64,000 nucleotides of DNA from Clostridia bacterium (GTDB lineage: Bacteria > Bacillota > Clostridia > TANB77 > UBA1234). Of the stretch, positions 41,394-64,000 are shown piece after piece. The notes beneath the pieces were generated by a model. The model was not told where the DNA came from. It saw only the letters and a program-made list of their open reading frames with translations, and did no database searches. Every line of letters begins with the position of its first letter. The stretch's first letter is position 1. The position numbers and the translations under genes are program-made. The DNA lies in assembly GCA_017522765.1 (NCBI GenBank), contig JAFWYG010000005.1, forward strand, positions 571,048 to 635,047, written 5' to 3'.

Positions 41394-41556
41394 TTTTATC
41401 TTTCTGTATAGTTTTTAAAAAGTAAGTACCCTTATGGTTCACTTTTGTAACAAACTTGTAATTTGAATACACAATATTCTTGTGATAGAGTTTAATCGGA
41501 AGTGTATATAACTAATTTATTCGACTATCAGTTTTTTCTGAAAGGAGGCAAATTCA

Positions 41557-42792: not shown

Positions 42793-42917
42793 TTTTCGAG
42801 TTGTCATATGATGAGAAAAGACTAGAGTTGAAAAGCTCTAGTCTTTTTGATTGAAAAACCTTCTTAAATATTGTATGCTATACGTATTATTAAATATTTG
42901 AGGAGGTATTATTTTAT

Positions 42918-43466: not shown

Positions 43467-43509
43467 AAACAAGAAACCCGGCTGCTTTTTATTGCAGTCG
43501 GGTTCTTTT

Positions 43510-44217
43510 TTATTTGTTAAAAACTTGCATTGCTTTTGCGTAAATTTCATCGTGGATGTCATCGATAGTACGCAAGTTACCATTCTCATCAACGCAGTCG
43601 ATGATAGTCCAACCGTACTTCTTTGCCACCCAAAGAGATGTCTCGTACGCAGCTTTCAAATGCTCGTCGTCGGCTTCGTGAATGTCACGTTCGCCGCCAG
43701 AAGAAGTTTGTCCTCTTTTTGCCTTGAGAATTTTTGCTTGCTCATGAGGCATGTTCAGAAGGATAACTTCATCGTAATTAGGAATACCCATTATGCCATT
43801 TTCAAATTCGTACAACCAGTCGATAAGCTCTTGCTTCTCTTCTTCAGTCTTAAGCTTACACGCCTGGTGCAGAATGTTAGATGTGATGTATCTAGCCAAA
43901 AGTACGTTGCCACCAGCGCGGTAGGTTTCGCCCCACTCGCCTTTCATATATGATGCATATCTATCTACAGCGTAAAAGACTGAAGCTGTCTTCGCGCTGA
44001 CGTCAGACGCATTCGCACCGAAATCGCCGTTCAAATACTGTCTAACAAACCAGCTGCTATCAGACGGATAATCAGGGAAACTTGCCGTTGCAAACTTTAC
44101 ACCTTCAGCTTCCAATCTTTCACACAACTTGTTAAACTGTGTAGTTTTGCCACTGCAGTCAGTGCCTTCTATGACTATGATCTTACCCATGAGAAAATTC
44201 CTCCTTTTCAAATTCAT
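43510..44217 (-). CDS. Thymidylate kinase-like (dNMP kinase family) protein
   Basis: P-loop GKIIVIEGTDCSGKTTQ and a DRY-type motif (AVDRYASY). About 45% GC, an HGT signature. Own terminator upstream at 44330-44365. Confidence 0.65.
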   Translation of the reverse strand: MNLKRRNFLMGKIIVIEGTDCSGKTTQFNKLCERLEAEGVKFATASFPDYPSDSSWFVRQYLNGDFGANASDVSAKTASVFYAVDRYASYMKGEWGETYRAGGNVLLARYITSNILHQACKLKTEEEKQELIDWLYEFENGIMGIPNYDEVILLNMPHEQAKILKAKRGQTSSGGERDIHEADDEHLKAAYETSLWVAKKYGWTIIDCVDENGNLRTIDDIHDEIYAKAMQVFNK

Positions 44218-44327
44218 ATAGTTATATCAAATTTGTCTCTGGATTTCTGCTTCATTGATATCTTATATTAATGAAAGTAAAAGTCAACATGAAAAAATTT
44301 ACAATTACGCCCATCAAAAAAGAGCAC

Positions 44328-45431
44328 TTATTGTGCTCTCTTGTTTTTATTCTTTGCTTTCCAGAAAAGTCTCTTTATTCCAGTTAAAAACTTGGCCCAG
44401 TTTGTTTGCTCTTCTACATCAATTAAATATTTGACACCCGGCTCAACGCTAACAATTTCTTCTTTTTGATACACGCCTTTGCGAGCCGCATAAGTTTCTT
44501 CAGCTTCTGCTTGCATCACAGCATCTAATTCTTCAAGAAATTCCGCTACTGTTTTTTCACTAACATTTAGGTACTCTTGCATAAACGCCCAGTCTCCTTT
44601 TCCGTCTTTAATGTGTCTTGCTAATTTAAATAACTTCGTTTGCATATCTTCACCATAACTTGTACATTGTGAAAGCGCAACAGCAAACTTGTTTGCAAAC
44701 GCTGTTGAAAGTTCACCTGTATAAATTGTGTTGTCTATGTAATTAATTAATTTTTTAGTACCTGCTTCCAATAAAATTTCATTATCTTCAGAAACGTTAT
44801 AAATTTCAGCAAGTCCTGCAGAAATTTCTTTATGTCCAATTTCACCAGTTGTAGCTTTGCTCCAAATTGTTAAAAACATTGTTGCACATTTGTTTGGATC
44901 CTTAAAATGATTCTTTTTAACCGCGTGTGCCACAATCACTTCCGGACTCATGTTAAATACATTCTTTTCTTTCATATAATATATGAATGCATTTGAATAA
45001 TATACAGGTAAAAATTCTTTTAATAAAGTATATTCTCCATATTTTGATGCACCTTTTGCTTGCACACTCACCCAACGACGCATAAATTCATAAATCAAAT
45101 TATGAGCAGTATTAATTGTCCCATCAAAGTCAAACTTTGTTCTTTGTCTAATATATTCATTCAATAACGCACCTGATGAATCAATCTTAACAATAAATTC
45201 TTCTGTGAGATGATACACCATCGCGATATCTATTTTCATATCTGTACACGACACATCTATGTAACCATCGCGCACTTCGTCTTCGTAACGCATTAGTTTC
45301 AAAAAGATGTCCATGTTGTTTTGTACAAGTGAGTTATCTTTCAAAACTTGTACAGAACTTTTAATGTACTTCGCTATGGTCGCTTCACGTGCTGTTGCGA
45401 CATTTGTATTATCTGTACTTGTCTTTTGCAT
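44328..45431 (-). CDS. Hypothetical protein (367 aa)
   Basis: Long ORF with the terminator agagcacaataagtgctct+T6 downstream. No recognised motif. Confidence 0.5.
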   Translation of the reverse strand: MQKTSTDNTNVATAREATIAKYIKSSVQVLKDNSLVQNNMDIFLKLMRYEDEVRDGYIDVSCTDMKIDIAMVYHLTEEFIVKIDSSGALLNEYIRQRTKFDFDGTINTAHNLIYEFMRRWVSVQAKGASKYGEYTLLKEFLPVYYSNAFIYYMKEKNVFNMSPEVIVAHAVKKNHFKDPNKCATMFLTIWSKATTGEIGHKEISAGLAEIYNVSEDNEILLEAGTKKLINYIDNTIYTGELSTAFANKFAVALSQCTSYGEDMQTKLFKLARHIKDGKGDWAFMQEYLNVSEKTVAEFLEELDAVMQAEAEETYAARKGVYQKEEIVSVEPGVKYLIDVEEQTNWAKFLTGIKRLFWKAKNKNKRAQ

Positions 45432-45608
45432 AACTCCTCACTTTCTTCTTTAGTAAAAATAAATTTCCATATATAACTATTTTATCAATCTTAAAAATTT
45501 GTGCAATAGTTTTTTCGCTATTTATATTAGTAGAAATTTTAAAAAAATAAAATGGGGAAACCCCCGGGCATCTCAATTAAGAGAATGCTCCGAGGGTTTC
45601 AAAATTTG

Positions 45609-46148
45609 TTAGATGAATTCCAGATTCCATTCAGTGGAACGCAGCGCCTTGAATTCCTCTTCGCCACGCTCCGCCATCTTGTATCTGTCGAGGTCAATGG
45701 TTTTAAGCCAGTGAACATAGCACGCAAAGCGCTTCAGCTCGTAATAAGGGAGCCACAGCTTTGCTGCGACATTAAGAACAATGTCAACGGTTCTGCCGTT
45801 CTCATTGATGTGCAGTGCGGGAGATGCCTGCTTACCCAGGAATGTGTAGTTTACGGTTGCTCCGTATCTCTTGGGAATCGGGGCATTTTCATGCACGCAC
45901 AGCTGACGCATCAGATGAATCAGATAGTAAAGCGGAAGCTTGGTTTCGCCGTTGCTACCACCTTCGCTCACCACTTCGGTGATTTTCGCCGTTGTCGGCT
46001 CCATCTTGAAAAGAATCTCATAGGTGCACGTGCTCCCGTCCTTCTTCTCGATGATTTTGGTTGCTCGAACCATTTTTTCGTTTCCTACGTTTGCTTTTTC
46101 CATGTTGTCATTCCTCCCATGGTTGTTAATCTTCGACTTTGTACTCAC
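45609..46148 (-). CDS. Hypothetical protein, paralog A of a tandem pair (about 50% GC)
   Basis: Alignable to the upstream paralog (TYEILFKMEP / EYEYKIHFHINP; PLYYLIHLMRQL / RPYMLLHLLTRVY; IPKRYGA / GFPRKAEA). Overlaps its partner by 23 bp. Complex terminator at 45555-45600. Confidence 0.55.
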   Translation of the reverse strand: MSTKSKINNHGRNDNMEKANVGNEKMVRATKIIEKKDGSTCTYEILFKMEPTTAKITEVVSEGGSNGETKLPLYYLIHLMRQLCVHENAPIPKRYGATVNYTFLGKQASPALHINENGRTVDIVLNVAAKLWLPYYELKRFACYVHWLKTIDLDRYKMAERGEEEFKALRSTEWNLEFI

Positions 46149-46674
46149 ATGTCCACATCTCAGCGTGAACGGGATTCAGAGTATGATAAGGACTTCTTTC
46201 ACCCTCAGCACACATCAGCTCATAGGTGGGTTCATCATAGAACTGCAAGTTCTGAATGTATCTCACCATCTTGAGAATGTCCGGTGTGCTCATCCAGTCA
46301 CCATTCACCTGCTGATCCAGTCTGTAACGCTTGCCAGACTTAAAAATCTTCAGTGCAGGATGGTGCAGATATTTGCCCTTGGGGTGCTGCTTCGGATTCT
46401 TTACATACTGTGCTTCAGCTTTGCGCGGGAAACCGATCTGTACATTGGTTTCTTCGTAAACGCGTGTCAGCAGGTGCAGCAGCATGTACGGCCGAATCGA
46501 AATCTTGCCTTTCTCAGAGACAAAACGCGGCAGGCCGTTTTCCGGGTTGATGTGAAAATGGATCTTGTACTCATACTCTTTTCCAGAGTTCGACTTGAGC
46601 ATCGCCGTGGCGTACACATGCAAACGCTTCTTGTCTTTGTCGGGGTTGCCAACTTTTCCTACATCAGCTTTCAT
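46126..46674 (-). CDS. Hypothetical protein, paralog B of the tandem pair (about 50% GC)
   Basis: RBS GCAGGAGG. Preceded by promoter-operator element R1. Confidence 0.55.
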   Translation of the reverse strand: MKADVGKVGNPDKDKKRLHVYATAMLKSNSGKEYEYKIHFHINPENGLPRFVSEKGKISIRPYMLLHLLTRVYEETNVQIGFPRKAEAQYVKNPKQHPKGKYLHHPALKIFKSGKRYRLDQQVNGDWMSTPDILKMVRYIQNLQFYDEPTYELMCAEGERSPYHTLNPVHAEMWTCEYKVED

Positions 46675-46755
46675 TGATAAAATTCCTCCTGCATTAGCAG
46701 ATTAGTCAAGAGCTTGTTGCCTTGCTTAGGATATATACAAGTATTCTTGCCGAGG

Positions 46756-46862
46756 TCATTATATCACGACTTTTAAATTATGTAAAGTGTCCCATTTTGG
46801 GACGGACTCTTCGTGGGACAAGTTGTCCCATAATAGGTCCGTCCCAAAATGGGACAAAAACA
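46756..46862 (-). promoter_or_regulatory. Promoter-operator element R1: nested palindromes (GTCCCA-N4-TGGGAC, GGACGGAC, GGGACAA-C-TTGTCCC) immediately upstream of a -35 TTACAT / -10 TATAAT promoter
   Basis: The 19-nt perfect inverted repeat gtcccattttgggacggac / gtccgtcccaaaatgggac flanks the 15-nt palindrome gggacaacttgtccc. About 90% identical to R2 at 47814-47922. Confidence 0.6.
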
Positions 46863-46892
46863 CGAGCGCCACAATATGTGACGCTCGCTTCC

Positions 46893-47753
46893 TTAATATG
46901 TGATTTCGTTGTAGGGTTTGCCCCAGTTGTTTCTTACCCATTCGTTCAACTTCTCAACACCCGCCTCATCAGTGCCAAACTTTCTGCGCATCATGAGAGC
47001 CATATCATTGAAGCTCATATCTTCAGTGAACTTCTCCGGCAACGGCAACTCCCACTTAAGTCTCATATGCTCATAAACACTTCTAAGAGCACAGGAAAGT
47101 TCAAAGACATTCTTTGTCTTGATTCCCCATGCTTTAACAGGTACATCAGGTTTCTTGTTCTGCATTTCATGAAGGCCTGCAGCCACAAAAAGTTCTGTGA
47201 AATACGCCCAGTTCCGACTGTTTCCCCAGCACTCGATTGCGAAGAGATATCCCTCAGCTCTTTCATAAAGCTTCAGACTAAGACCAGATTCCTTATCTTC
47301 CAGAAAGTTTGCGATGTTAAGGAGCTGTTTAGAAACTTCAGACGGCTTCTTGCCCCAAGGCTTTTTAAGTGCCGTACACAACTCCGAAAAAACTGGCTGC
47401 GTGTCTTCCTTTTTGTTAGGAAAAATACTAATATGTGTTTCGTACCAATTCGGGCCACTGCGAGGATTACCATTAAAGGAAAACATCAGCCCACAGCGCT
47501 TCATGTTGATTGCCGCATTCAGCAGCTTACAAAGATTGTCCCGATCGCTTTTTAATGCGACATCAAGATATGCGAAGTGATGATCGCCAGCATCACAGCC
47601 AACAGTCTCAACACCTTTTTTGTGACAAAGCCACAGAAGTTCCTCCAGCATTTTATTACCTTCAGCCCATTCCGGGATAGCCACTTTAAGCTCAGCTTCA
47701 CTCAGCCCACCGATTGGAATCGATTTGCCGCAGTTCCACTTCGACCTATTCAT
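46893..47753 (-). CDS. Hypothetical protein (286 aa, about 48% GC) bracketed by R1 and R2
   Basis: RBS GGAGAAGGAGG before ATG (MNRSKW). The plus-strand ORF 46722..47555 is low-complexity antisense junk. Confidence 0.55.
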   Translation of the reverse strand: MNRSKWNCGKSIPIGGLSEAELKVAIPEWAEGNKMLEELLWLCHKKGVETVGCDAGDHHFAYLDVALKSDRDNLCKLLNAAINMKRCGLMFSFNGNPRSGPNWYETHISIFPNKKEDTQPVFSELCTALKKPWGKKPSEVSKQLLNIANFLEDKESGLSLKLYERAEGYLFAIECWGNSRNWAYFTELFVAAGLHEMQNKKPDVPVKAWGIKTKNVFELSCALRSVYEHMRLKWELPLPEKFTEDMSFNDMALMMRRKFGTDEAGVEKLNEWVRNNWGKPYNEITY

Positions 47754-47813
47754 AGAACGTTTCCTCCTTCTCCTATAGATGATTAGGATCTACAAATTTG
47801 TTTATTAAACAGG

Positions 47814-47922
47814 TGGATTATATCACGGCTTTTAATTTATGTAAAGTGTCCCAAAGGTGGACGGACTCTTCGTAGGACAATTTGTCCCGCAATGGGTCCG
47901 TCCCCTAGTGGGACAACAAAAA
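47814..47922 (-). promoter_or_regulatory. Promoter-operator element R2 (second copy of R1) driving the 46893..47753 gene
   Basis: Same palindrome architecture and the same -35/-10 (TTACAT ... GATATAAT). Followed upstream by the terminator gcgacttgagaaatcaagtcgc+T5 of the giant gene. Confidence 0.6.
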
Positions 47923-47951
47923 GCGACTTGATTTCTCAAGTCGCCTCTCTT

Positions 47952-50900
47952 TTACTCTTTAAACATATTTACGAATTCTTCTTCATTTATTTCGCCATGT
48001 TCTAACAAATATTCAACTACATTAGACATCTTATCTTTGTTATCTCTAATTAATTCTTTAACCTCTTCAAAACATTTTTTCAAGATTCTATTTTCTTCAT
48101 CATATATTGTTTTTTCCAATGCTGTATTATTTGAAGATACTTGTGCTAAACCTAAATCGGACATGCCGTATCTTGTAATCATGTTTCTAGCAACTCTTGT
48201 AGCATGCTCTAAATCAGAGGTTCCACCACTCTTATAGAATCCTAAGAACACTTCTTCAGCAGCAATACCTGCTAGCGATCTCTTTATCGAATTCATTAAT
48301 TCTTCTTTCGAATGAACGTAAGCCGCATTCGAATTGTCATACTCAACATATCCTAAAGCTCCCCAACCTTCTGCTTTACACGTAATCTTTTTGATACCAC
48401 ATCTCTTAACTAACAAGTATCCAACAGTTGCGTGACCAACTTCGTGAATCGCAGTCTTTCTCATTTCTTCTGGAGTAATCTTACTTGGATCAGCCATAGA
48501 TGCTCCGTCAAGCATTGAATTTGTAATCTCTTGTATTGTTGGAATATCTTCTGCTGTTATCGTTGTTACATCAGTTGGTGATGCAGTACCACTCTTAGAT
48601 TTTTCTGCAAAATTCTTAGAATGATTAACCATTGTCTTTGAAAATACTTTATCTGCAAATCTACCATTGCCAATGTTATCAACCTTGTAGAAATACTTCA
48701 TAACTTCTTTTACTTTTTCTATCGCACCATCGCTTAAAGTTAATCCACTCTTTTCAACTTTTCTTCTAAATATTTCTGTAAGTTCAGAATCAGAATAATC
48801 TTCAAAGTTAAATGTGTAACCAATTCTAGATGCAATACCAGGATTTATATCCAAGAAGTCTCTCATCTCTTTTTTGTATCCAGCAAAAATTACTACAAAC
48901 TCACCTTTATGATCTTCCATTGCTTTGATTAAAGTTGCAACAGCTTCTGCACCATAATCATGTCCCGGACCACCATGACCATTTGCAAGTGAGTATGCTT
49001 CATCTACGAATAATACGCCTCCCATTGCACGTTCTACAACTTCATTTGTTTTAATTGCAGTTTGTCCAACATATGCAGCAACTAAATCTTTTCTTTCAAC
49101 TTCTACAAGTTTATTCTCATGGATAACTCCCATATCAAATAACATCTTTGCAATGATTCTTGCTACAGTTGTTTTACCTGTACCTGGATTTCCAGTGAAT
49201 ATCATATGCAGATTTGAATCAGGAAGATTTATATTTTGTTTTTCCGCCTCTTTAATAAACGATACATATGTGCCTAAAGAAATTATTTCTTTCTTCAAAC
49301 TTTCCATACCAACAATCTTAGCTAAAGCTTCTTCAACATTTGCACTAGTACTAATTCCGCTTTCAGTAAGCTCTTCAATAGTTGGAATGTCTGCTTCAGT
49401 TATAAGTTCTATATTTTCTCTATCGGCCAAAGCATGTTTCATCAAAGTTTTTTGAATTACTTTATCAACGAAACGACCATTACCAAAGTTCTTTCTCTTA
49501 ACGAAATAATCACAAACTCTTTTTAATGGAACATCAATATCGTCAGCAAATTTAAAACCTGCTTTCTTCATCTTCATATAGAACATTTCCATTAATTCTT
49601 TTACGTTATAATCTTCGAAGTTAAATGTATAACCAATTCTAGATGCAATACCAGGATTTACATCGAGGAATGTTTTCATCTCATCTCTGTAACCTGCAAA
49701 GATTACTATCAAACTTTCTTTATGATCTTCCATCGCTTTAATCAATGTTGCAATAGCTTCAGCACCAAGTTTATCAGATGCAAGTGTGTATGCTTCGTCA
49801 ATAAATAGTACACCGCCCATTGCATGTTCTATTATCTCATTAGTTTTAATAGCAGTTTCTCCACCATGAGTACCAATTAAATCTTTTCTTTCAACTTCAA
49901 CAAGTTTATTCTCATGGATAACTTCCATATCAAATAGCATCTTCGAAATAATTCTAGCGATTGTAGTTTTACCAGTACCCGGATTACCTGTGAATATCAT
50001 ATGCATATTTGTGCTAGGAATGTTTAGTTTCTTTTGTTCTGCTTTCTTAACAAATTTAGCATACTTACCAAAAGTCCTAATTTCATTCTTCACATTTTCC
50101 ATACCGATAATCTTTTCAAGCATCTCTTCAGCAGTTTCATGCTTACCATTTTTAGACTCGTTTTGATTTAATTGTTCAATGCTTGGAATGTCTTTCTCAG
50201 TAATCATCTTCAAGTCTTCAGAATCACCCAAAGCATGATTCATCAAAGTTTCTTGAATTACTTTATCTACAAAACGACCATTACCAAAACTCTTTCTCTT
50301 CGAATAATAGCTAAAGATTCTCTTAAGTGGAACGTAAACATCATCACCACATTCAAAACCATTTTTTCTAATCTTCACACGGAAGATTTCGATCAATTCT
50401 TCAACTGTATAATCAGGGAAATCAAAAGTATAACCTATTCTAGAAGCTATACCAGGATTGATATCCAAGAAGTCTTTCATCTCTTTTTGATATCCTGCAA
50501 AAATAACAACTAGCTTATCTTTGTGATCTTCCATTGCTTTAATTAAAGTTGCAATAGCTTCACTACCAAAGTCGTTTTTACTTTCACTTGCTAAAGTGTA
50601 TGCTTCATCAACGAATAACACACCACCCATAGCTTTATCTATAACTTCAGTTGTTTTTGTTGCAGTTTGTCCAATATATTCTGCAACTAAATCTTTTCTC
50701 TCAACTTCAACAAGTTTATTTTCTTTTACAACACCAAGATCAAAAAGCATCTTCGCCATAATCCTTGCAACAGTTGTCTTACCAGTACCAGGATTACCTG
50801 TGAATATCATATGCATATTTGAAGAAGCTACTTTCAAACCATTTGCTTTGGCTTGCAATTGGAAGAACATATACTTTTCAAACTCTTTAACTTTTTCTTT

Positions 50901-53774
50901 TACACTATCTAGACCAATGATGTTATCCAAAGATTCTTTCTTATATATGTTTGGTGGGAACACCAATTCATTTCTTGAATTTGCGTAGTTAGCAAGATAA
51001 TTAACAATCTCCGGCTTACTAAATGGCATGAACTTTTGATTCAAGCTCACATACTCATTAAATTGTTTTTTATATTCCTCTTCTGTCTCTCTAAGCTTCG
51101 CAGACAAATCCGGATTCAATATTTTCTTGTAACTTACAAACATATCATCTAAAGAATATGTTGGAATATTAATTATATTATTTTGATAAACGAATTTAAG
51201 TCTTGCATCAAGATCCAAGAAAGATTCAATTTCATCAGGCGTTGCATTGATAATTACATAACCTTTAGAAGTAATATTTGCAAGCACGTCAATAGCATGT
51301 TTTATCATCTTCTTATCAAGATAATTTTTGTTGTAAAAATAGAAATCAGAAACAAATTCGCTAATAGAATCAAGCACATAAATCGCATTTGCTTCTAAAT
51401 TGTTTCTTCTATTAACTGTATATCCACCTCTGTATTTGATGTTGTTATTATCTTTTTTGAAACTTGGTTTTTCCTCTATTTCCAAATCATAATAAACTAA
51501 CTTTTCATCTTTATTGATTCTTAAATCAGTAGTGTGATAATAAAGTTTTGCAAAATGAGATGCCGGAATTTTTCTTACATTATCAATTTGATTTTGATTC
51601 TTAATAAGTTCAATAATCTTATCAATAAAGTTATTCTTTGCAGTCTCATCTTCACCAGCAACAATGCAGTGGAAATTAGTTTTACTACTTTCCATGATGC
51701 TGTTAATTGTCACATTCAGATTCTCAATCTTACCATCATAAGAACCTTTTAAATCTTGAAGTTTTTCTTCTTTCTTTGCATTTAACTCATCAATTTTTTC
51801 TTGTATAAAAGTATTTCTCTTAGCATCAATCTCATCTTTGTGAGCAGCATAAAACTCTCTATCTTCTTGTATCTTATGCTCTTGACCAGACTTAGTTAAA
51901 TACAAAATATATGCAGCAACAACAATTGCACAATAAGGCATTCTACAACTATATGAACCGCACAAATCATCAACTTCAACATTTGGTTTTCTATCTAAAG
52001 CTTTTGCTTTTTCCCAACTTTCTATCGGATTAATTTTATTAATATCAAAATCCGAAAATTGTGAATCAGCACAAGAGAAAAGTTCATCAAAATTCATGTA
52101 ACCATCTTTATCTAAAGATCTGCGAATTCTTATCATGTTTCTTTTTACAATTTCTTGTGCAAAATCAAAAGCTTTATCACTTACATTTTTCAAACCATTC
52201 TTTGTATTCCATTTAAAAGTAAAGAATCCATTATCATCTTTATTTACGTTTTTATATTTTTCTCTTGCAGAAAGCTTATCTCTCAAAAGATTTTTATTCT
52301 TCAAATACAATATGTATGCAGCCAAACGTTTTGGACAAGATTGATACTTACAAGTAAAACAAGAATCAGTACGAAAGAACTTTCCAGTACCAACTTTCCA
52401 AGTTCCACCTTTTACATTCACTCTGAAATTTTTATCTGCATTAGCTTTTTCAAGGAACTCATCATCAGTTTCATCACGATCACAAAAACCATATAATTTA
52501 GAACCAATTGCAACCGTATTATTTTCAAAAGCTAAACTAAGACTACCACGTTCAATTATATTTAGCGCAACTTCAATAGACTTATCATTTGCAGCATTTA
52601 AAAAGTCATCTTCGTCCCAATCAAAATCATAAGCTTTATTTTCAGAATTTCCAGCCTCAATTCGCGCAACAATTTGATCATAATTTAATGCAGGTGCTTC
52701 TGATTTTGGTGTAGACACTTCTTGTTCTGATTTAACTGGTGGTTCTAGTTTTGGTTTTTCAGCCAAGTGTACCGTCTTGTCCGCTGGCGGCGGCACAACC
52801 TTCTTTGCATTCTCATCTCTAAATTTAGGAGGTATCGCACCTTTAACATTCTCCATCTTAGGAGGTGTAGGATTTTTTATCGGTTCCTCTAGTTTAATGT
52901 GTTCTTCAACTTTAATTGGTTCGTCGATTTTAATTGGATCATCAAGTTTAATTGGTTCTTCAATCTTTATCGGATCTTCTACCTTGATTGGATCTTCGAT
53001 TTTTATTGGTTCCTCTACCTTAACCGTTTCTTCTTTCTTAATTGGTTCAACCGGAACCACTGGCTCTACCAAGGTTATTGGAGATATATCATCAACGATA
53101 GGTTCATCAACTTTTATAGGTTCGATGGGTTTTACTTGAGGAACTTCATCCTCCTCAGTTAAAACATTAAGCGTAATCGGTTCATCCTTTACCAACGGTA
53201 CAAAATCTGAAGGCAAATCAGAAAGTTTAATCGAAGTAGAATCTTCTTCTTTTTTTGTTGCTTCAGCCTTCGGCTCCATTCTCTTAGGAGCAGGTTTGGC
53301 CTTAAGCTTTGTCACATACTCATCAACCAATTTCTCGTATAATCTATATGCATCTTTATATTCATCCGTTCCATTTGCATATCTTTTAATACTGCTCGCA
53401 ATATAAAAAATCTCAACAAAAGAAACTATATCATCAAAATTATTTTCAAACTTTAACTCGTCAACAGTTTTAATAATTGCTGTGTTTTTCTCTTCATCAG
53501 ACAAAGCTTCAAATCTCAACATTCTAGCATTGTCTTCAAGCAAAGAAATAATATTTCCTATGTGCGAAGCATTAACTCCATCCTCAGAAAAATACATAGG
53601 AAAACGCGCAACAATCTTTTTATTATCAACTTCAAAAGCTCGATTCGCATCATCAGGACAAGCTATAAAATATTTTTTCGTTTCTTCATCAGGTATTCCA
53701 TAACCGATTAAATATTTATTTAACAGTATCTCTAAAACCGAAACACCATCGTTGAAACCAGTTTCCTTATCCAT
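47952..53774 (-). CDS. Giant (1940 aa) multidomain protein: N-terminal domain, EPIK proline/glutamate repeats, Cys-rich duplicated modules, three tandem SpoVK/CbbX-type AAA+ ATPase modules and a C-terminal FtsH-type M41 zinc metallopeptidase domain; no TM segment
   Basis: Walker A three times (MIFTGNPGTGKTT[VI]ARI) and Walker B three times (GGVLF[VI]DEAY[TS]LA). HEVGHATVGYLL...GGTSDLEHATRVARNMITRYGMSD is the M41 HExxH plus helical bundle. The AAYILYL Cys-flanked motif is duplicated. Strong RBS AGGGGGA. Confidence 0.8.
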   Translation of the reverse strand: MDKETGFNDGVSVLEILLNKYLIGYGIPDEETKKYFIACPDDANRAFEVDNKKIVARFPMYFSEDGVNASHIGNIISLLEDNARMLRFEALSDEEKNTAIIKTVDELKFENNFDDIVSFVEIFYIASSIKRYANGTDEYKDAYRLYEKLVDEYVTKLKAKPAPKRMEPKAEATKKEEDSTSIKLSDLPSDFVPLVKDEPITLNVLTEEDEVPQVKPIEPIKVDEPIVDDISPITLVEPVVPVEPIKKEETVKVEEPIKIEDPIKVEDPIKIEEPIKLDDPIKIDEPIKVEEHIKLEEPIKNPTPPKMENVKGAIPPKFRDENAKKVVPPPADKTVHLAEKPKLEPPVKSEQEVSTPKSEAPALNYDQIVARIEAGNSENKAYDFDWDEDDFLNAANDKSIEVALNIIERGSLSLAFENNTVAIGSKLYGFCDRDETDDEFLEKANADKNFRVNVKGGTWKVGTGKFFRTDSCFTCKYQSCPKRLAAYILYLKNKNLLRDKLSAREKYKNVNKDDNGFFTFKWNTKNGLKNVSDKAFDFAQEIVKRNMIRIRRSLDKDGYMNFDELFSCADSQFSDFDINKINPIESWEKAKALDRKPNVEVDDLCGSYSCRMPYCAIVVAAYILYLTKSGQEHKIQEDREFYAAHKDEIDAKRNTFIQEKIDELNAKKEEKLQDLKGSYDGKIENLNVTINSIMESSKTNFHCIVAGEDETAKNNFIDKIIELIKNQNQIDNVRKIPASHFAKLYYHTTDLRINKDEKLVYYDLEIEEKPSFKKDNNNIKYRGGYTVNRRNNLEANAIYVLDSISEFVSDFYFYNKNYLDKKMIKHAIDVLANITSKGYVIINATPDEIESFLDLDARLKFVYQNNIINIPTYSLDDMFVSYKKILNPDLSAKLRETEEEYKKQFNEYVSLNQKFMPFSKPEIVNYLANYANSRNELVFPPNIYKKESLDNIIGLDSVKEKVKEFEKYMFFQLQAKANGLKVASSNMHMIFTGNPGTGKTTVARIMAKMLFDLGVVKENKLVEVERKDLVAEYIGQTATKTTEVIDKAMGGVLFVDEAYTLASESKNDFGSEAIATLIKAMEDHKDKLVVIFAGYQKEMKDFLDINPGIASRIGYTFDFPDYTVEELIEIFRVKIRKNGFECGDDVYVPLKRIFSYYSKRKSFGNGRFVDKVIQETLMNHALGDSEDLKMITEKDIPSIEQLNQNESKNGKHETAEEMLEKIIGMENVKNEIRTFGKYAKFVKKAEQKKLNIPSTNMHMIFTGNPGTGKTTIARIISKMLFDMEVIHENKLVEVERKDLIGTHGGETAIKTNEIIEHAMGGVLFIDEAYTLASDKLGAEAIATLIKAMEDHKESLIVIFAGYRDEMKTFLDVNPGIASRIGYTFNFEDYNVKELMEMFYMKMKKAGFKFADDIDVPLKRVCDYFVKRKNFGNGRFVDKVIQKTLMKHALADRENIELITEADIPTIEELTESGISTSANVEEALAKIVGMESLKKEIISLGTYVSFIKEAEKQNINLPDSNLHMIFTGNPGTGKTTVARIIAKMLFDMGVIHENKLVEVERKDLVAAYVGQTAIKTNEVVERAMGGVLFVDEAYSLANGHGGPGHDYGAEAVATLIKAMEDHKGEFVVIFAGYKKEMRDFLDINPGIASRIGYTFNFEDYSDSELTEIFRRKVEKSGLTLSDGAIEKVKEVMKYFYKVDNIGNGRFADKVFSKTMVNHSKNFAEKSKSGTASPTDVTTITAEDIPTIQEITNSMLDGASMADPSKITPEEMRKTAIHEVGHATVGYLLVKRCGIKKITCKAEGWGALGYVEYDNSNAAYVHSKEELMNSIKRSLAGIAAEEVFLGFYKSGGTSDLEHATRVARNMITRYGMSDLGLAQVSSNNTALEKTIYDEENRILKKCFEEVKELIRDNKDKMSNVVEYLLEHGEINEEEFVNMFKE

Positions 53775-55784: not shown

Positions 55785-57560
55785 TTATAACAGCTTTCCA
55801 ATAAGTATGTCAAATTTTTTTATTGTTTCTTCATCATATAGAAACTCTTTTTTTTCTATTTTTTTCAGTACAGCTAAAGAATAGTATTTTTTTTCACCTT
55901 CATAATCTTTATTATTAATCCCAATTTCATTTCTATCTCTGTCTGAAAACAATGATTCTATGGTAATACTTTGTTCTTCTTTTGGAAGTCGTTCTGCATC
56001 TACAAATATAATATCATTTTCTTGTACTAAAAGTTTTTTTACCAGAACCTTATATTCATTCCTACCATCTCTATCCTGATCCAACAGAACTTTATATTTA
56101 TACCCCCACCCCATTAATATAGAAACTAAATTGTGAATGTTCGAAACTCCTGATGATGGAATTATATTACAGGTATCCTCGATTCCTTTTTGTATAAAAT
56201 ATGCTTTTAAATAATTAAAATCCGAAATTCCTTCTGTAATAATATTATTTTTTTCTGTACTCATTGCTGAAAAACTATACCCCATTTTCATTCCTATAGC
56301 TTCAAGAATTGGAGTAATAGTCTCTTGTTTTCCTGCCATAGAATGCGGCAAAGAATGGTATGCATTACTTATATTACTATTTTCATTTTCATCTTTTATT
56401 ATGGTTCTAACTCTATCTAAATGTTCTTGATATATCATAGAAGGATGTTGGGTTGTATATATTATTTGATTGTTTTTAGATACAAAATTTTCAAATAATT
56501 CTAGTATCATTTTTTGTGCATTAACATGTAAAAACACACCTGGTTCATCTAGCAAAACAACAAAATTTTCCAAATTTGTTTTTTGAGTTTGCGCAAGCAA
56601 CTGAATATAAAAGCTCAAATACCATTTCAGTCCATTACTTCTTTCGCTTAAATTCAGATATTTCTTGTTCGTTTTCACAAGAAAATTTATATATTCATTA
56701 TTAAAATTCATTCTTAATTCAACATTATCTTGTTTATAAAATTGATTAAATCCTTCCATAAATTTTTGAATTTTTTTATTGATTTCTTCCTGAAAATTAT
56801 ATTTATCGCCATCACAAGATAAAATCCAAAATCTTTTTACCTCATCCTTTTCAACACCTATTACTTTCAAAAAACTAGTCAACACATCATCATGCTTTCC
56901 GTTATCTAACACACTGTTTTTCGTATATTTTGATTCTAATTCTACATTTTTTAAAAATATAAAACGTGGTAATAAAGAATATATTGTTTTTATACGTTTA
57001 ATAAACTCTTCAAAAGTTTTTAAAAATTCTGAATATTTACTATTTCTACTCAAATTTTTAATCATAGTATCCATCATAACTGAATATACAAAAACTTTAT
57101 TCTCTATATTTTTAATATTTTCAATCATTTTATTCATAGTAATGTTATGACTCGGTTCACTAAAAGTAATTCCTTTAGATAGGTTTATCAATTCATTTTT
57201 ATAAAATTGTATATTATTATTTTTGCTTATTATTTCAGATAATCCACCTTCAAATTCAACAGCGCCATTTCCTTTTATTGTAAATTTTGTTTCTTTTTCC
57301 GAAAGATAAATTTCCTTTTCTTTTTCATAAGGGAATGCAATCATTGAAATTACAATTTCATCGTTTATATAATTTTTATTTTTGTCTTCATCATTTAAAT
57401 TTGAAAATCCATCAAAATTCAATTTACTAATAGCGTTAAGAAAATTACTTTTACCAGATTCATTTTTACCAACAATTGTTGTAATTTCTCCCAAATCCAT
57501 TCTATTATTTTCTTCTCCAAAAGACTTAAAATTTTTTATTTTTATAGATGTTATTTTCAT
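55785..57560 (-). CDS. OLD-family nuclease (N-terminal ABC-type ATPase plus C-terminal TOPRIM), class-1 architecture
   Basis: Walker A GKNESGKSN, signature-like LSERSNGLK, Walker B VVLLDEPGVFLH, and H-loop TTQHP. TOPRIM IITEGISD and LLDQDRDG. Confidence 0.8.
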   Translation of the reverse strand: MKITSIKIKNFKSFGEENNRMDLGEITTIVGKNESGKSNFLNAISKLNFDGFSNLNDEDKNKNYINDEIVISMIAFPYEKEKEIYLSEKETKFTIKGNGAVEFEGGLSEIISKNNNIQFYKNELINLSKGITFSEPSHNITMNKMIENIKNIENKVFVYSVMMDTMIKNLSRNSKYSEFLKTFEEFIKRIKTIYSLLPRFIFLKNVELESKYTKNSVLDNGKHDDVLTSFLKVIGVEKDEVKRFWILSCDGDKYNFQEEINKKIQKFMEGFNQFYKQDNVELRMNFNNEYINFLVKTNKKYLNLSERSNGLKWYLSFYIQLLAQTQKTNLENFVVLLDEPGVFLHVNAQKMILELFENFVSKNNQIIYTTQHPSMIYQEHLDRVRTIIKDENENSNISNAYHSLPHSMAGKQETITPILEAIGMKMGYSFSAMSTEKNNIITEGISDFNYLKAYFIQKGIEDTCNIIPSSGVSNIHNLVSILMGWGYKYKVLLDQDRDGRNEYKVLVKKLLVQENDIIFVDAERLPKEEQSITIESLFSDRDRNEIGINNKDYEGEKKYYSLAVLKKIEKKEFLYDEETIKKFDILIGKLL

Positions 57561-57597
57561 TTTTCTTCTCCTTATAATATTTCGTTTTTATAAAAAA

Positions 57598-58065
57598 CTA
57601 ATGTTCTAGCCAATACCCAAAGTTGTTATACCCATCATCCTGCACCCAGTCATATACATTAGCTATTTGAGAAAAATAAACATCCTCACCTCTGCAATCT
57701 TTTCCTAAAATACCAAAGCAAATGCTTCCTTTGTTTGATGTCAAACCAGTTCTCATATCTTTTATTTTGTGAATATATACACCAATAATTTTATTCCCTC
57801 TTTTATAGCTTTCTTGAAGTTCGTACCTCACAAATTTTCTGCTAGCCGTTTCTTCTCCTATTAATACAACTGTAACACTGGTACCTTTCAATTGTTCATC
57901 AATCCAATTGTATATAGCGGGATCTCCCCCTAATTTTATTTTTTCAAAATCTGCTTTATCAATAAAACCAGCCGCTTTATTTCCTGGTATTACCCAACTA
58001 TTTCTAACTACATTTGCTCTATTAACATCGTTCGCATAGTGAAAACTAAAAAATACATTTTTCAT
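57598..58065 (-). CDS. TIR-like domain protein of the ThsB / DUF1863 type (Thoeris TIR component-like)
   Basis: VFFSFHYANDVNRANVVRNSW ... SVTVVLIGEETASRKFVRYELQESYKRGNKIIGVYIH ... VYDWVQDDGYNNFGYW. This is the pattern and the conserved C-terminal tail that I recall for Bacillus ThsB and DUF1863, not verified by search. Confidence 0.65.
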   Translation of the reverse strand: MKNVFFSFHYANDVNRANVVRNSWVIPGNKAAGFIDKADFEKIKLGGDPAIYNWIDEQLKGTSVTVVLIGEETASRKFVRYELQESYKRGNKIIGVYIHKIKDMRTGLTSNKGSICFGILGKDCRGEDVYFSQIANVYDWVQDDGYNNFGYWLEH

Positions 58066-58081
58066 ATAAATCCCTCCATTA

Positions 58082-58537
58082 TTATATAAATTTCAACAAA
58101 ATTGTAATAACTATAAACAATATGTAATATCCCACTATAGAAAATGAAGTAATCGACTCTAACATCAAGCCCACTATTTCATATTTAAAATCTGTATTTT
58201 TGGGCTTCATATTATATATCTCGATTGTTTTTAATTTTCCTTTGTTTAAATCATTTACAAACACATTGTATTTTTGAACATATACTCGTTCTAACGCCAA
58301 ATAATACGCATCCATTAAAGCTCCAATAAAAGTTATTACTATACCAATACACCAGTATGGTTCAAAGATTTCTATAGCCGATAAAACCGTGGCATAAATT
58401 GTGTATATAACCGCAACAAGAGCTTTTGTGTTAGAACTATTAGTCGCCATACGCGAAATATTGTTTTGTAAAAATCCCAAATATGTACAGACAGATTGTT
58501 CGTTTTTGTTTTTTAAGATATTACTATATTTTTTCAT
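58082..58537 (-). CDS. Small 3-TM membrane protein (151 aa), candidate membrane effector/partner of the TIR-like gene
   Basis: TM helices ALVAVIYTIYATVLSAI, WCIGIVITFIGALMDAYYL and SFSIVGYYILFIVITILLKFI. 16-bp gap to the TIR-like gene. RBS GAGGAGG. Promoter TTGATA-17-TAAGAT upstream. Confidence 0.55.
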   Translation of the reverse strand: MKKYSNILKNKNEQSVCTYLGFLQNNISRMATNSSNTKALVAVIYTIYATVLSAIEIFEPYWCIGIVITFIGALMDAYYLALERVYVQKYNVFVNDLNKGKLKTIEIYNMKPKNTDFKYEIVGLMLESITSFSIVGYYILFIVITILLKFI

Positions 58538-58663
58538 ATTACCTCCTCACACAAAAATAAGTAGAGTTCAAAATCCCTACTTATCTTAACTTTCCATATA
58601 AATTTTATCAAAAACGAACATTCTTTCCCATGGACAAAATAAAGCAAACTCTCTGTTTTCTAA

Positions 58664-59035
58664 CTATTTTGTCGCATTTTGTGTCATTTTGTAACTTTCA
58701 AGAAGCAAATCAATATTTTCATATTTCAAAGCATCAAGCGCACCTTCCAAAATTTTTAATTTTCTATCAAAGGTTATATTCGAGCTCTGTAAAAACTTCT
58801 TAAAAATTTCTGTATATTCACTTTCACTTATTACTTTAGTTTCAAATAAATTATCTAGACTAACATTACATTCTTTCGCGATTTTTATAGCATCTTTTAT
58901 ATTCATATCTCGTTTACCATTTTCCCAACTAGATACTTTAGATCTACTTATATCTAATTTTTCTGCAAAATCTTCTTGTGTATAGTTATTTTTTCTTCTT
59001 ATTTCTCTTAGTCTGTTTATAATAGATTTTTTCAT
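58664..59035 (-). CDS. XRE-family HTH transcriptional regulator
   Basis: LREIRRKNNYTQEDFAEKLDISRSKVSSWENGKR is a Cro/CI-type HTH. Confidence 0.8.
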   Translation of the reverse strand: MKKSIINRLREIRRKNNYTQEDFAEKLDISRSKVSSWENGKRDMNIKDAIKIAKECNVSLDNLFETKVISESEYTEIFKKFLQSSNITFDRKLKILEGALDALKYENIDLLLESYKMTQNATK

Positions 59036-59178
59036 TAGCGCACCTTCTTCAAATTTTTCAATACGAATATATAACTCTAAAAAGCTCTAAAAAGCGACAA
59101 ATTTATGCAAATAAAAAAGAGACGCTTCACAGAGCTTCTCTTTTTTAACCTTCCTATTTTTATACACTTCAGCAAACC

Positions 59179-59526
59179 CTAGCAGCTCAACTTATATAAA
59201 GCATACTGATTTAAAGACACACCTTCTCTTTCAGCTTCTACAGTTAATTTATAATGTAATGACTTAGGAATTCTCACAACGAATTTGCCACTAAAATCAT
59301 CATATCCTACAGGCATAGGTATTTCTAACCCCGCTTCCAATTTTGCCTCAATCCATAACTTCATTGCTTCTTTTACATTCTCATAAGCTTCTTCAAAAGT
59401 TTCTCCTGAACTTTGACAACCATCCAATTCCAAAACACGAGCATAAAAATAAGTACCACTCTCATCTTTAATTGGTTGTACAATAAAGTTGTATGGCAAC
59501 TCTAAATACTCCTTAATTTTCTTCAT
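59179..59526 (-). CDS. hicB: HicB-family antitoxin
   Basis: N-terminal HicB/UPF0150 fold (YNFIVQPIKDESGTYFYARVLELDGCQSSGETFEEA) and a C-terminal DNA-binding tail (LNQYALYKLS). Confidence 0.75.
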   Translation of the reverse strand: MKKIKEYLELPYNFIVQPIKDESGTYFYARVLELDGCQSSGETFEEAYENVKEAMKLWIEAKLEAGLEIPMPVGYDDFSGKFVVRIPKSLHYKLTVEAEREGVSLNQYALYKLSC

Positions 59527-59583
59527 AAAAGGTCACCTCCAATAATATCTCTTATCATATAAGATACTCTAAAAGCAATTTCT

Positions 59584-59812
59584 TTATTCTCCAATTCTTT
59601 TGAGCACATCTTTAACATATACTGCTTTCAAAGGATTTTCTTCTTTTATCACAATGACATCCCCTCTCTCGTTAATAAAAACTCTGTGAGATGTTCCGTT
59701 TCTTAGCTTTCATATTATATCCATAGTGTTCCAAAACTCTTGTCAATTCTTGATACCTGATTCCATTAGGTTGTCTTTTCATTTTTAATATTAGCTTATC
59801 AACATCCGGCAT
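59584..59812 (-). pseudogene. hicA: hicA toxin gene with a +1/-1 frameshift (229 nt between ATG and stop)
   Basis: Frame 1 reads MPDVDKLILKMKRQPNGIRYQELTRVLEHYGYNMKAKKRN... and frame 2 reads ...SHRVFINERGDVIVIKEENPLKAVYVKDVLKRIGE. Together they reconstruct a HicA/YcfA-like protein with the GSH..F core. Confidence 0.45.
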
Positions 59813-60318: not shown

Positions 60319-60825
60319 TTACATATTTTCTAAGAACTTGCATACCTTCACAAAGCACGCAATTTGATTCGCATTTAATTCGTTTGTTTCCACCATATGA
60401 TTCAATTCATCCATCGAAAACCATCTAACCTCAGATAGTTCCTCCTCCTGGATTTGCATATCCGCAATGTCCACATCTTTATTCACAAAATACATTTTGT
60501 AGCAATCTCTGCCATCACAACCAGAATCGTATTCGATTAATGTCTCATTAGAAAAATCTAATCCCAACTCTTCTCTTACCTCTGTAATAATTCCCTCAAT
60601 TGGAGTTTCGCCAGCTTTAGGATGTCCACCAGTTACACCCCAGTCGCCACCTTTGCTCTCTACTCTCTTTTGCATAAGGAATTCCCCTTTTGAGTTTCTT
60701 ATCACAATCATAACAACCATAGGATAATACCCTTCAGGAATAGGTTCACCTTTTCTGTAAGTCTTGTCCGTTTTATTACTATTAACATCATATAAATCTC
60801 TTAATTCAGCCATACAATCCACCAT
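60319..60825 (-). CDS. NUDIX hydrolase
   Basis: GGHPKAGETPIEGIITEVREELGL Nudix box. Confidence 0.85.
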   Translation of the reverse strand: MVDCMAELRDLYDVNSNKTDKTYRKGEPIPEGYYPMVVMIVIRNSKGEFLMQKRVESKGGDWGVTGGHPKAGETPIEGIITEVREELGLDFSNETLIEYDSGCDGRDCYKMYFVNKDVDIADMQIQEEELSEVRWFSMDELNHMVETNELNANQIACFVKVCKFLENM

Positions 60826-61013
60826 CTTTCAAATCGAATTTTCGTTTCTACTGACATTATATCATCTTTGTAACATTTAGCAACATTTAATGTAATATTT
60901 TCTTACATTATTTTAGTAGATCTATTGATAAACGAATTTCATTGTTATAACATTAAGAGGTCCTCAGAACCACGGTTCTAATCCCGAGGCGAAAGGAGGA
61001 TTGAATCTACAAA

Positions 61014-61082
61014 TGATAAAACTTTCAATTAAATTTTATGTGTTGGTACTGATATACTTAATACTTAAGTTATTTGACTAAT
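61014..61082 (+). CDS. Candidate small hydrophobic peptide (22 aa; type I toxin-like)
   Basis: MIKLSIKFYVLVLIYLILKLFD. GGAGG 13 nt upstream inside a potential hairpin (cctc...gagg). Followed by a strong bidirectional terminator at 61093-61130. Confidence 0.3.
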
Positions 61083-61263
61083 ACATAAATAAAAAAAAGA
61101 CTAGTGTTGCAGCACTAGTCTTTTTTTGTCCTCTTGGACAAATCTACTAAATAAAACTTTCAATTAAAGTTTAGAAACAACTAAGTTTTCAAGCCAGCTG
61201 CCTCTTTGTAATATATATTTTATACACGAGGTAATTAAAAGTCAACAAAAAGTATACGTTTTA

Positions 61264-61476
61264 TCACCCCTTATTCATTCTTTCAACAATTTCCTTCGCT
61301 TTAGACACTTTCATCTTCTCTAATTCCCTTTTAACTTCATCAGGCTCACAAATATCGATCATAGCATGAACTGTAGCCTCAGCATCATCTAGTTGGGTAT
61401 TTTCTCCACGAAACACTTTTAATTCATATTCTGCAGATTTGGCACTATTGAACTTTTTTGTTTTTTCTAAATCCAT
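61264..61476 (-). CDS. Small acidic hypothetical protein (70 aa)
   Basis: ORF with an RBS GGAGGAAA. No motif recognised. Confidence 0.4.
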   Translation of the reverse strand: MDLEKTKKFNSAKSAEYELKVFRGENTQLDDAEATVHAMIDICEPDEVKRELEKMKVSKAKEIVERMNKG

Positions 61477-61764: not shown

Positions 61765-62406
61765 TTATATACCATTCGCTCCATACTCCCCCTCAAACTC
61801 CACCACTATCTCACTCAACCTCTCATCCAAATACTCCATCGCTTTTGCTCTCATCTCTTCCGGTATTCCATAGTAAGCTTCGGCGATGCCGCCTGTGATT
61901 GCGCCGATTGTGTCGCTGTCGCCGCCTATAGAAATTGCATTTCGGATGGCATCTTCGAAACTTGTTGATTCTAGGAATGCGGTGATTGCTTGAGGCACGG
62001 TGCCTTGCCAACTTTCGTTGAACGCGTATCTTGGTCTTATCTCATCCAAAGTGAAGTTCATCGGATAATAGTTTGCATCTATGTAATCGTGAATTTCAGG
62101 AATCGTATGGCCTGTCCTTGCAAGATAGATTGCAACGGCTGTTGCTTCAGCGCCTTTGATACCTTAACAACCACCATAACCACAATGCGGATACAGCCTA
62201 CCGATTTCCTTCATATAGAAAATCGTTTTCTCCGACAAATCCTCAAAACCTTCTTGAGACTCGATTATAGCCTTCGCGATAGCAAGCGACATGATAGAAT
62301 CATCTGTACATTCACAATCGCTATGAAAAATCTCAAACTCTTTATTCTTATTATTTTCAAATTCAAATCTCGAACCGGCGATATCGCCGATGATTGCACC
62401 TAGCAT
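61765..62406 (-). pseudogene. ADP-ribosylglycohydrolase (ARH/DraG family) interrupted by a single in-frame TAA (plus coordinates 62164-62166)
   Basis: N-terminus MLGAIIGDIAGSRFEF (ARH signature). The two ORFs 62164..62406 and 61765..62061 are in the same frame. The sequence continues ...GIKGAEATAVAIYLARTGH...GGDSDTIGAITGGIAEAYYG (the second ARH metal-binding region). Confidence 0.65.
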
Positions 62407-63369: not shown

Positions 63370-64000
63370 CTATAACAAACCATTTTTTATTCCAAAAACA
63401 TTTTTTTCATCATCTACAACAAAAGTCAAACTATTAACAGCTCTGGTCATTCCAACATATAATTTATTTTTTGTTCCTGAATTTAAAGTTGCTTTTCCTT
63501 TAGATATGTAGTTTTTCAAATCATTTGTTGGATACAACAATACTCTATCATACGTTGCACCCTTTGATTTTCCCATAGTTATCGCACATGACAACTTACT
63601 AACATTTGTTCTAGAATCATATATAATTTGAACAGGTCTATATTTATTTATATATTCTTCAATCTGTTCTTTTCTTATTATGAATACCCCCTGATGACTG
63701 TTTTCTTCAATATCATTACATTCCATAGGAGGATATTCGGCATAAAATTTATTTACAAATTCAATAATATCCTTATGACATCTATAACATTTATTTAATG
63801 TCGTATTATCAATATCACACTCAACGGCTTTGCATTCTTTGCGTATATATTCTTCCACATTTCCGTTTGAATATTGTCTGTTTTTTTGCTCATAATGTGT
63901 TTTATAAATTGTTTGTCTCGGATCACCAACCAAAACAACTTCTTCTGCACTGCTCATAAGTTTTTTTATAAACTCCAAATCATAACCAGCCATATCTTGA
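63370..64000 (-). CDS. UvrD/PcrA-like superfamily 1 helicase, C-terminal part (the gene starts beyond the window end)
   Basis: Helicase motifs VVLVGDPRQTIY (motif III-like), CYRCHKDI (IV), ITMGKSKGATYDRV (V) and YVGMTRA (VI). Confidence 0.7.
   Translation of the reverse strand, partial: QDMAGYDLEFIKKLMSSAEEVVLVGDPRQTIYKTHYEQKNRQYSNGNVEEYIRKECKAVECDIDNTTLNKCYRCHKDIIEFVNKFYAEYPPMECNDIEENSHQGVFIIRKEQIEEYINKYRPVQIIYDSRTNVSKLSCAITMGKSKGATYDRVLLYPTNDLKNYISKGKATLNSGTKNKLYVGMTRAVNSLTFVVDDEKNVFGIKNGLL

Follow-up and report, generated by a model that had tools for sequence, protein, structure and literature searches.

A candidate type I toxin–antitoxin module with a par-like layout in an accessory island of uncultured ruminant-gut Clostridia

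The locus and its relatives

The locus described here is located in a 438-nt gap (positions 60826–61263) between two minus-strand genes of the window, this being the whole 64,000-nucleotide stretch of DNA that was analysed. A Nudix hydrolase gene (60319–60813/60825, minus strand) forms one flank of the gap and the gene of a 70-aa protein (61264–61476, minus strand) forms the other. The gap contains a plus-strand gene encoding a 22-aa hydrophobic peptide, an intrinsic terminator, a direct repeat with one copy on each side of this terminator, and a predicted minus-strand promoter pointing back toward the peptide gene. An earlier note on this DNA had proposed a type I toxin-like gene with a nearby antisense promoter, and the parts of this reading that can be tested on sequence are supported by the present analysis. 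The interval to which that note had confined the candidate, 60961–61130, omits both promoters and the entire antisense side, which reaches to about 61250.

The surroundings had been described as a minus-strand island, in agreement with what is found: in the part of the window beyond about 48 kb, all long open reading frames (ORFs) that agree with called genes lie on the minus strand, and the few long plus-strand ORFs located there overlap larger minus-strand ORFs. The island around the module contains accessory and defence genes, namely a HicB gene with an adjoining 46-aa ORF (taken as HicA, without a family match), two XRE-type regulators, a ThsB-like TIR protein, AAA_15/21 ATPases, a Gabija-like OLD-ATPase/UvrD pair and a DpnD/PcfM-domain gene. 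This content would be compatible with a role of the module in stabilising mobile DNA or in abortive infection.

Three homologues of the neighbouring 70-aa protein, 70–73% identical to it and named as from the metagenome-assembled genome (MAG) 'Clostridia bacterium', were found on contigs from ruminant-gut assemblies with syntenic gaps. Among the neighbouring genes, only this one led through its homologues to informative alleles; exact look-ups of the neighbouring genes returned identical islands only, and homologues of the Nudix protein and more distant homologues of the HTH protein were observed in unrelated contexts from which the module is absent. A degenerate back-translated pattern of the peptide gave a single match in GTDB genomes, the locus L014 from an uncultured Eubacteriales MAG, and no match in viral contigs or in metagenomes. 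The allele set consists of three distinct intact alleles, those of the window, L003 and L014 (alignment A3), plus one deletion allele, and the three intact alleles all come from one lineage of uncultured ruminant-gut Clostridia.

The deletion allele is found in L007, L008, L009 and L011 (gaps L007:811–1102, L008:1562–1853 and L009:1898–2189, with the same gap in L011). In these loci, the sense promoter and the leader are missing and only the last codons of the ORF are left. The terminator is still present, as is the antisense side, with 98% identity, and the loci may be called 'orphan antitoxin' alleles. That the toxin side was lost and the antitoxin side kept is as expected of a decaying toxin–antitoxin locus.

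Searches of phage and plasmid records with the gap (blastn) and with the peptide (tblastn) returned nothing, exact leader or ORF patterns gave no match in viral contigs, JGI metagenomes or GTDB genomes, and the pattern of the antisense 5′ hairpin described below gave no match either. The terminator pattern matched one viral contig, L043 (IMGVR_UViG_3300006201_000576), which carries at 3418–3439 the identical terminator hairpin GACTAGTGTTGCAGCACTAGTC followed by a T-run, beside a serine recombinase gene; beyond this hairpin, nothing on the contig was found to be similar to the module.

Peptide gene and sense RNA

The peptide gene runs on the plus strand from ATG at 61013 to TAA at 61079–61081 and encodes MIKLSIKFYVLVLIYLILKLFD. 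Its Shine-Dalgarno sequence GGAGG (60995–60999, plus strand) stands 13 nt before the ATG; both the ORF and the GGAGG had been named in the earlier note, and both are present. The spacing of 13 nt is found in all alleles and is long for a Firmicute. An alternative in-frame start, TTG at 61001, would extend the product to 26 aa, and ATG 61013 is the likelier start because this TTG sits only 1 nt past the GGAGG. The plus strand is T-rich, and short hydrophobic ORFs are numerous on it. Among the 303 ATG-initiated ORFs of 18–60 aa in the window, 14 are equally hydrophobic and 2 have a GGAGG located 5–20 nt upstream, and the 61013–61081 ORF is the only one to combine both properties. Taken alone, the ORF is weak evidence and not beyond chance, and the case was therefore built on the related alleles from ruminant-gut Clostridia assemblies.

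In L003, L004 and L005, the peptide is MIKYLKLLVLVLIYLILKMFD, which has 21 residues, the difference in length being due to a 3-nt indel that keeps the frame. Between the window and L003, the last 13 codons contain 11 base differences, by which 8 codons are changed synonymously and 1 non-synonymously; when 11 random substitutions were simulated, none of 200,000 trials gave one or no amino-acid change together with no stop codon. The ORFs of the window and L014 differ at 4 bases, all synonymous, and encode the identical peptide. The remaining two reading frames are filled with stop codons in all alleles. These substitutions show purifying selection on the amino-acid sequence of the peptide, and the ORF is a real gene. 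An inverted repeat (I9) forms a hairpin over the 3′ half of the ORF and its stop codon (61035–61089, plus strand); this hairpin is kept in all three alleles, and its G·U to A–U changes fall at synonymous sites.

Pro, Gly and Cys are absent from both peptide alleles. The peptide also contains no Trp, and its C-terminus, K-L/M-F-D, is without a charged tail. No match to the peptide was found among all Pfam-A and NCBIfam HMMs at E up to 10, a soft negative because HMMER filters are weak on 22-aa queries, or among the PADLOC and PHROGs models, and a literature search for the peptide core found nothing.

Upstream of the ORF, the sigma-A-like promoter that had been proposed from TTGATA and TATAAC/TAACAT was recovered at 60925–60953 (plus strand) with a scan score of 9/12. 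It comprises a −35 hexamer TTGATA (60925–60930) and a −10 hexamer, which may be TAACAT (60948–60953) or, within TGtTATAAC (60943–60951), the alternative TATAAC (60946–60951) with a TG before it at 60943–44. Both hexamers are conserved in L003, with 7 of the 12 spacer bases compared being different. The sense RNA predicted from this promoter and the terminator, referred to here as RNA I, would be about 169 nt long (60959–61127, plus strand), extending from a probable start at G60959/60 to the end of the T-run. The fold of a 176-nt sense transcript was calculated to have −50.9 kcal/mol (z = −6.2), contributed chiefly by the terminator and the hairpin in the 3′ half of the ORF.

In the 5′ leader (60959–61002, plus strand), the 5′ end GGUCCUC (60959–60965) is predicted to pair with the Shine-Dalgarno region GGAGGAUU (60995–61002). 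This pairing is seen in the minimum-energy folds of both leader variants (−13.0 kcal/mol in the window and −13.5 kcal/mol in L014), whose 5′ ends read GGUCC(U/C)C, and it is still predicted with about 14 differing positions in the roughly 30 nt that it encloses. An alternative inner leader hairpin, in which AGAAC/GUUCU becomes UGAAC/GUUCA by one compensatory pair, fits both of the two leader sequences. The structured leader proposed in the earlier note is a possibility on these folds, but the leader hairpin is not unusually stable when compared with shuffles (z = −0.47).

Two other identities suggested by this part of the sequence were considered and rejected. The GC-rich leader had suggested a riboswitch; the whole window gave no Rfam match at gathering score, and the best hits of a permissive scan (E up to 10), plasmodium_snoR31 with 24.5 bits (cutoff 60) and RefA9 with 23.1 bits (cutoff 49), both lie over the terminator region, so that these sub-threshold matches are terminator-driven. 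The resemblance of GGTTCTAATCC to a tRNA T-arm had suggested a tRNA-derived attachment-site remnant; no tRNA was detected by ARAGORN.

The strong terminator with T7 that the earlier note had reported is present at 61099–61127. The complete element (61091–61127) consists of A8 (61091–61098), a stem (61099–61120) and T7 (61121–61127), and is regarded as bidirectional, and as common to both RNAs of the locus, because the stem is flanked by A8 and T7. It is conserved in all alleles, and was called on the minus strand by the terminator scan. It is located 137 nt downstream of the 70-aa gene, and since it is also used by the upstream minus-strand operon, its presence is not specific to the module. 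In the alignment A3 of the stem, the six central nucleotides read TTGCAG in the window and the reverse complement of this, CTGCAA, in L003; the RNA that gains a U·G pair instead of a C·A mismatch therefore switches between alleles.

Antisense gene and direct repeats

The earlier note had raised the possibility of an antisense promoter beyond the duplicated segment, and a consensus-like match conserved in three alleles was found there. It lies on the minus strand at 61217–61245, with a −35 hexamer TTGACT (61245..61240), a 17-nt spacer and a −10 hexamer TAAAAT (61222..61217), and its scan score of 10/12 makes it the best promoter match in the region. Across the three alleles, the −35 hexamer is identical, the −10 hexamer is TAAAAT or TAGAAT, and the spacer is variable. 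L014 carries a different gene upstream of this promoter, and homology to the window ends about 7 nt beyond the −35 hexamer. As the homology ends just outside the −35 hexamer, the promoter belongs to the module and not to the 70-aa gene.

The antisense RNA predicted from this promoter and the common terminator, referred to as RNA II, would be about 120 nt long (61086–61210, minus strand). Its first 38 nt form a 12-bp 5′ hairpin (61173–61205, minus strand) with predicted energies of −11.2, −11.6 and −10.9 kcal/mol in the three alleles, compared with −1.6, −7.4 and −8.7 kcal/mol for the same sequences read on the plus strand. All three variable positions of this hairpin are G·U to A–U exchanges. 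Promoter, homology boundary and hairpin together make the presence of an antisense gene likely.

The duplicated segment described in the earlier note is real and does lie beyond the terminator, but its second copy has the coordinates 61151–61168 rather than 61146–61165. The exact repeat comprises 18 of 18 nt (61016–61033 and 61151–61168), is extended to 22 of 23 nt over 61016–61038 and 61151–61173, and in a gapped alignment covers 35 nt at 88.6% identity. In this alignment, copy 1 (61004–61038, plus strand) spans positions −9 to +25 around the start codon and is the proposed antisense target, and copy 2 (61141–61173), when read on the minus strand, provides the anti-start-codon segment of the antisense RNA. 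Against the 18 nt observed, 1000 dinucleotide shuffles of the gap yielded no exact direct repeat longer than 14 nt.

Both repeat copies of the window and both of L014 contain ATAAAACTTTCAATTAAA. In L003, copy 1 is ATGATAAAGTATCTTAAGTTA and copy 2 is ATGACAAAAGTATCTTAAGCTA, which have a different common core, AAAGTATCTTAAG. The sequence between and around the repeats (leader, terminator and distal antisense side) is near-identical across the alleles. For the start-codon region, cognate sense/antisense duplexes were predicted at −31.6, −29.0 and −29.8 kcal/mol and non-cognate ones at −11.0 to −14.8 kcal/mol, with the paired region extending from about −9 to +25 around the AUG. The calculation was limited to this region because RNAduplex, when applied to the full-length 5′ parts, gave long bulged duplexes with poor discrimination. 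The comparison indicates that the two repeats co-vary between alleles, as expected for sense/antisense complementarity over the start codon; this covariation is based on few independent events, since the three intact alleles represent two repeat types and two leader types within one lineage.

A kissing-loop contact, in which the loop of a 7-bp hairpin of copy 2 would complement copy 1, was considered and dropped, as this hairpin is absent from the L003 repeats. There are hints of a second pairing region. The 6-mer GTCCTC at the sense 5′ end recurs directly past the terminator (61128–61133), where the antisense RNA contains a small hairpin, GUCC-AAGA-GGAC (61128–61139, minus strand), whose GAGGAC is complementary to the sense 5′ end GUCCUC. 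Both copies of the 6-mer are GTCCCC in L014, and this single parallel change is the basis for suggesting that they may pair.

Interpretation and comparison with known modules

In par, the plasmid-addiction locus of Enterococcus faecalis plasmid pAD1, convergent promoters share a common bidirectional terminator, the direct repeats DRa and DRb are read oppositely and mask the fst start site, a 5′ stem-loop sequesters the Shine-Dalgarno sequence, and an upstream helix protects the 5′ end (PMC7472228). The present locus resembles par (pAD1 RNA I/Fst and RNA II) and its Firmicutes homologues, including SprA1/SprA1AS (PepA1) of S. aureus, in its convergent promoters, which are predicted here, in its common bidirectional intrinsic terminator with complementary 3′ stem-loops, and in its oppositely read direct repeats, through which the two RNAs would be complementary over the start of the toxin. 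A small hydrophobic peptide and a location in mobile DNA are also common to both. A counterpart of the 5′ segment by which par can sequester its Shine-Dalgarno sequence is predicted here, in a fold that is no more stable than shuffles and that has an alternative hairpin beside it. The peptide itself is different, with 21–22 residues here and 33 in Fst. Fst/Ldr peptides contain a PXXXG(C) motif, a conserved tryptophan and a charged C-terminal tail (PMC7472228), all of which are absent here. In addition, the predicted antisense RNA is longer than RNA II of par (about 120 nt, with the extra 5′ hairpin), DRa and DRb are replaced by one long repeat and possibly a second one of 6 nt, and no YUNR U-turn motif was seen by eye in the terminator loop. 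The comparison with the Fst/TxpA/Ldr families that the earlier note had recommended was therefore negative: the peptide is not a member, there being no HMM match and no Fst/Ldr motif. With the par layout found and the Fst features absent, the module would therefore work like par without belonging to the Fst family. By sequence, what is new is a peptide unrelated to Fst, and what is known is the par regulatory design.

The best explanation, which we hold to be probable, is that the locus is a type I toxin–antitoxin module built like par of pAD1. We infer its transcripts and their ends, translational repression, membrane toxicity and a biological role as follows. A plus-strand mRNA of about 169 nt (approximately 60959–61127) would encode the 22-residue hydrophobic peptide, and its 5′ end could fold back on the Shine-Dalgarno sequence. 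A convergent minus-strand RNA of about 120 nt (approximately 61210–61086) would be transcribed from its own promoter to the same bidirectional terminator, and would bear a segment of about 30 nt complementary to positions −9 to +25 around the start codon of the peptide; the terminator stems of the two RNAs would likewise be complementary. Pairing of the sense and antisense RNAs would block ribosome binding. If replenishment of the antisense RNA ceased, synthesis of the peptide would follow, and its insertion into the membrane would arrest or kill the cell. This would stabilise the accessory/defence island that bears the module.

Type I modules of other bacteria share some of these features. 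Nearest in taxonomy, the Clostridioides difficile modules (CD0977.1–RCd11, CD0956.2–RCd10 and further ones) also come from the class Clostridia, reside on mobile elements and consist of convergent sense and antisense genes, and their antitoxin RNAs are specific for the cognate toxin (PMC7699646), as is predicted here from the duplex energies. C. difficile type I toxins have 34–53 residues, a lysine-rich tail and an AGGAGG located 7–8 nt before the ATG (PMC7699646), unlike the present peptide with its Shine-Dalgarno spacing of 13 nt and no charged tail. The antisense RNAs of C. difficile act by direct overlap and not through repeats flanking a terminator. In Escherichia coli, the toxins of Ibs/Sib and ShoB/OhsC are near-purely hydrophobic peptides of 18–26 aa without long charged tails, and are thus similarly short and hydrophobic; however, these systems are from Proteobacteria, with Sib fully overlapping in antisense and OhsC divergently encoded, and have no sequence similarity to the present locus, the scan of all Pfam-A having given no match. 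TxpA/RatA and BsrG/SR4 of Bacillus subtilis resemble it in having convergent genes that overlap at their 3′ ends and in being located on prophage-like elements. In these modules, the antitoxin works chiefly through the overlap of the 3′ ends and decay dependent on RNase III, and the toxins have 38–59 residues. The Rfam model of BsrG gave only 12 bits here (cutoff 55).

The coding and antisense evidence is silent on toxicity, and the ORF could instead encode a non-toxic but genuine small membrane protein, such as a membrane-protein regulator, with its translation tuned by the convergent antisense RNA and without any addiction or killing. Such a reading would accommodate a peptide that matches no toxin family and has no charged tail of the kind usual in Fst and in C. 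difficile toxins. It is nevertheless considered unlikely, as toxin modules are where a par-type layout has been known to occur to date (PMC7472228), as the module has HicAB, a TIR protein and a Gabija-like system for neighbours in a mobile island of accessory and defence genes, and as some alleles have lost the peptide gene and kept the antisense side, which fits the decay of a toxin.

Two further readings dispense with the antisense RNA or with the gene itself. If the repeat copies were operators for a DNA-binding protein, such as an XRE-type regulator of the island, their joint change would reflect altered specificity of this protein; two HTH genes are indeed nearby, and copy 2 contains a 7-5-7 palindrome, AAACTTT-CAATT-AAAGTTT (inverted repeat I3). 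This palindrome is absent from the L003 repeats, however, and neither copy overlaps a promoter. The adjoining 106-aa HTH protein is 92–97% identical in all alleles, and its segment VSRVIITNIEND, assumed to be the recognition helix, is unchanged, yet the L003 repeats are radically different. Operators would also not account for the conservation of the minus-strand promoter, for the hairpin specific to that strand or for the end of homology at the −35 hexamer, and we regard them as very improbable. Still more improbable, to the point of being scarcely credible, is a reading in which the plus strand carries just a non-coding RNA or an intergenic ORF arisen by chance, with the terminator belonging to the upstream minus-strand operon. 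The abundance of short hydrophobic ORFs on the T-rich strand, the location of the terminator downstream of the 70-aa gene and the non-significant leader fold would agree with this, but it conflicts with the overwhelmingly synonymous substitutions, the in-frame indel and the conservation of the promoter and GGAGG.

Under the par-like toxin–antitoxin reading, the natural alleles, with two recognition types and the toxin-lost form, would constitute a ready experiment on RNA–RNA specificity, and a par design of repeats flanking a common terminator combined with an Fst-unrelated peptide would mean that the regulatory scaffold is separable from the toxin family. Few type I toxins would be as short as this peptide, which could find use as a compact counter-selection marker. 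To our knowledge, annotation of type I toxins is very rare, and almost every example so far described is from a cultured pathogen or a model organism; the present one is from uncultured ruminant-gut Clostridia. Current understanding would not be overturned by it.

While the recognition segments diverged, there was hardly any change in the leader, the terminator or the 5′ hairpin of the antisense RNA. We tentatively raise, as a possibility that is on balance doubtful, that the locus founds a new family of very short (21–22 aa) Gram-positive type I toxins that reuse the par design, in which the recognition segments and the overlapping N-terminal half of the peptide diverged together to give at least two alleles in the same chromosomal slot. 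If so, diversifying selection may act for non-cross-reacting toxin–antitoxin RNA pairs among competing mobile elements, and the toxin-deleted 'orphan antitoxin' alleles could serve as anti-addiction elements.

Several other features of the window were recorded. A defence-type cluster occupies 55785–59812 and 63370–63993 (both minus strand), and contains an AAA_15/21 ATPase, the ThsB-like TIR protein, HicB with the 46-aa putative HicA, a predicted membrane protein of 151 aa and a UvrD-type helicase of which the C-terminal part is included; in L001, this helicase is paired with an OLD-family ATPase (Gabija-like) and adjoins the DpnD/PcfM gene. In the same island, an unusual, giant architecture is found at 47952–53774 (minus strand), where a 1940-aa protein combines three AAA+ ATPase modules, an nSTAND3-like region and a C-terminal M41 (FtsH-type) peptidase. 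The region of about 40000–48000 has a GC content of 0.40–0.44, compared with about 0.30 elsewhere, and long ORFs overlapping on both strands, three of which are without a Pfam match; it may be foreign or non-coding DNA. An ADP-ribosylglycohydrolase gene is split in the window into ORFs of 98 and 80 aa (61765–62061 and 62164–62406, minus strand) and occurs as one 225-aa gene in L003 and as genes of 126 and 139 aa in L010 and L012; the window copy is probably a frameshifted pseudogene. More than 1200 proteins are homologous to the Nudix hydrolase (60319–60813, minus strand) at E below 1e-40; many of these are 80–90% identical to it and located in unrelated gene contexts, and the Nudix gene looks like a widely exchanged cargo gene.
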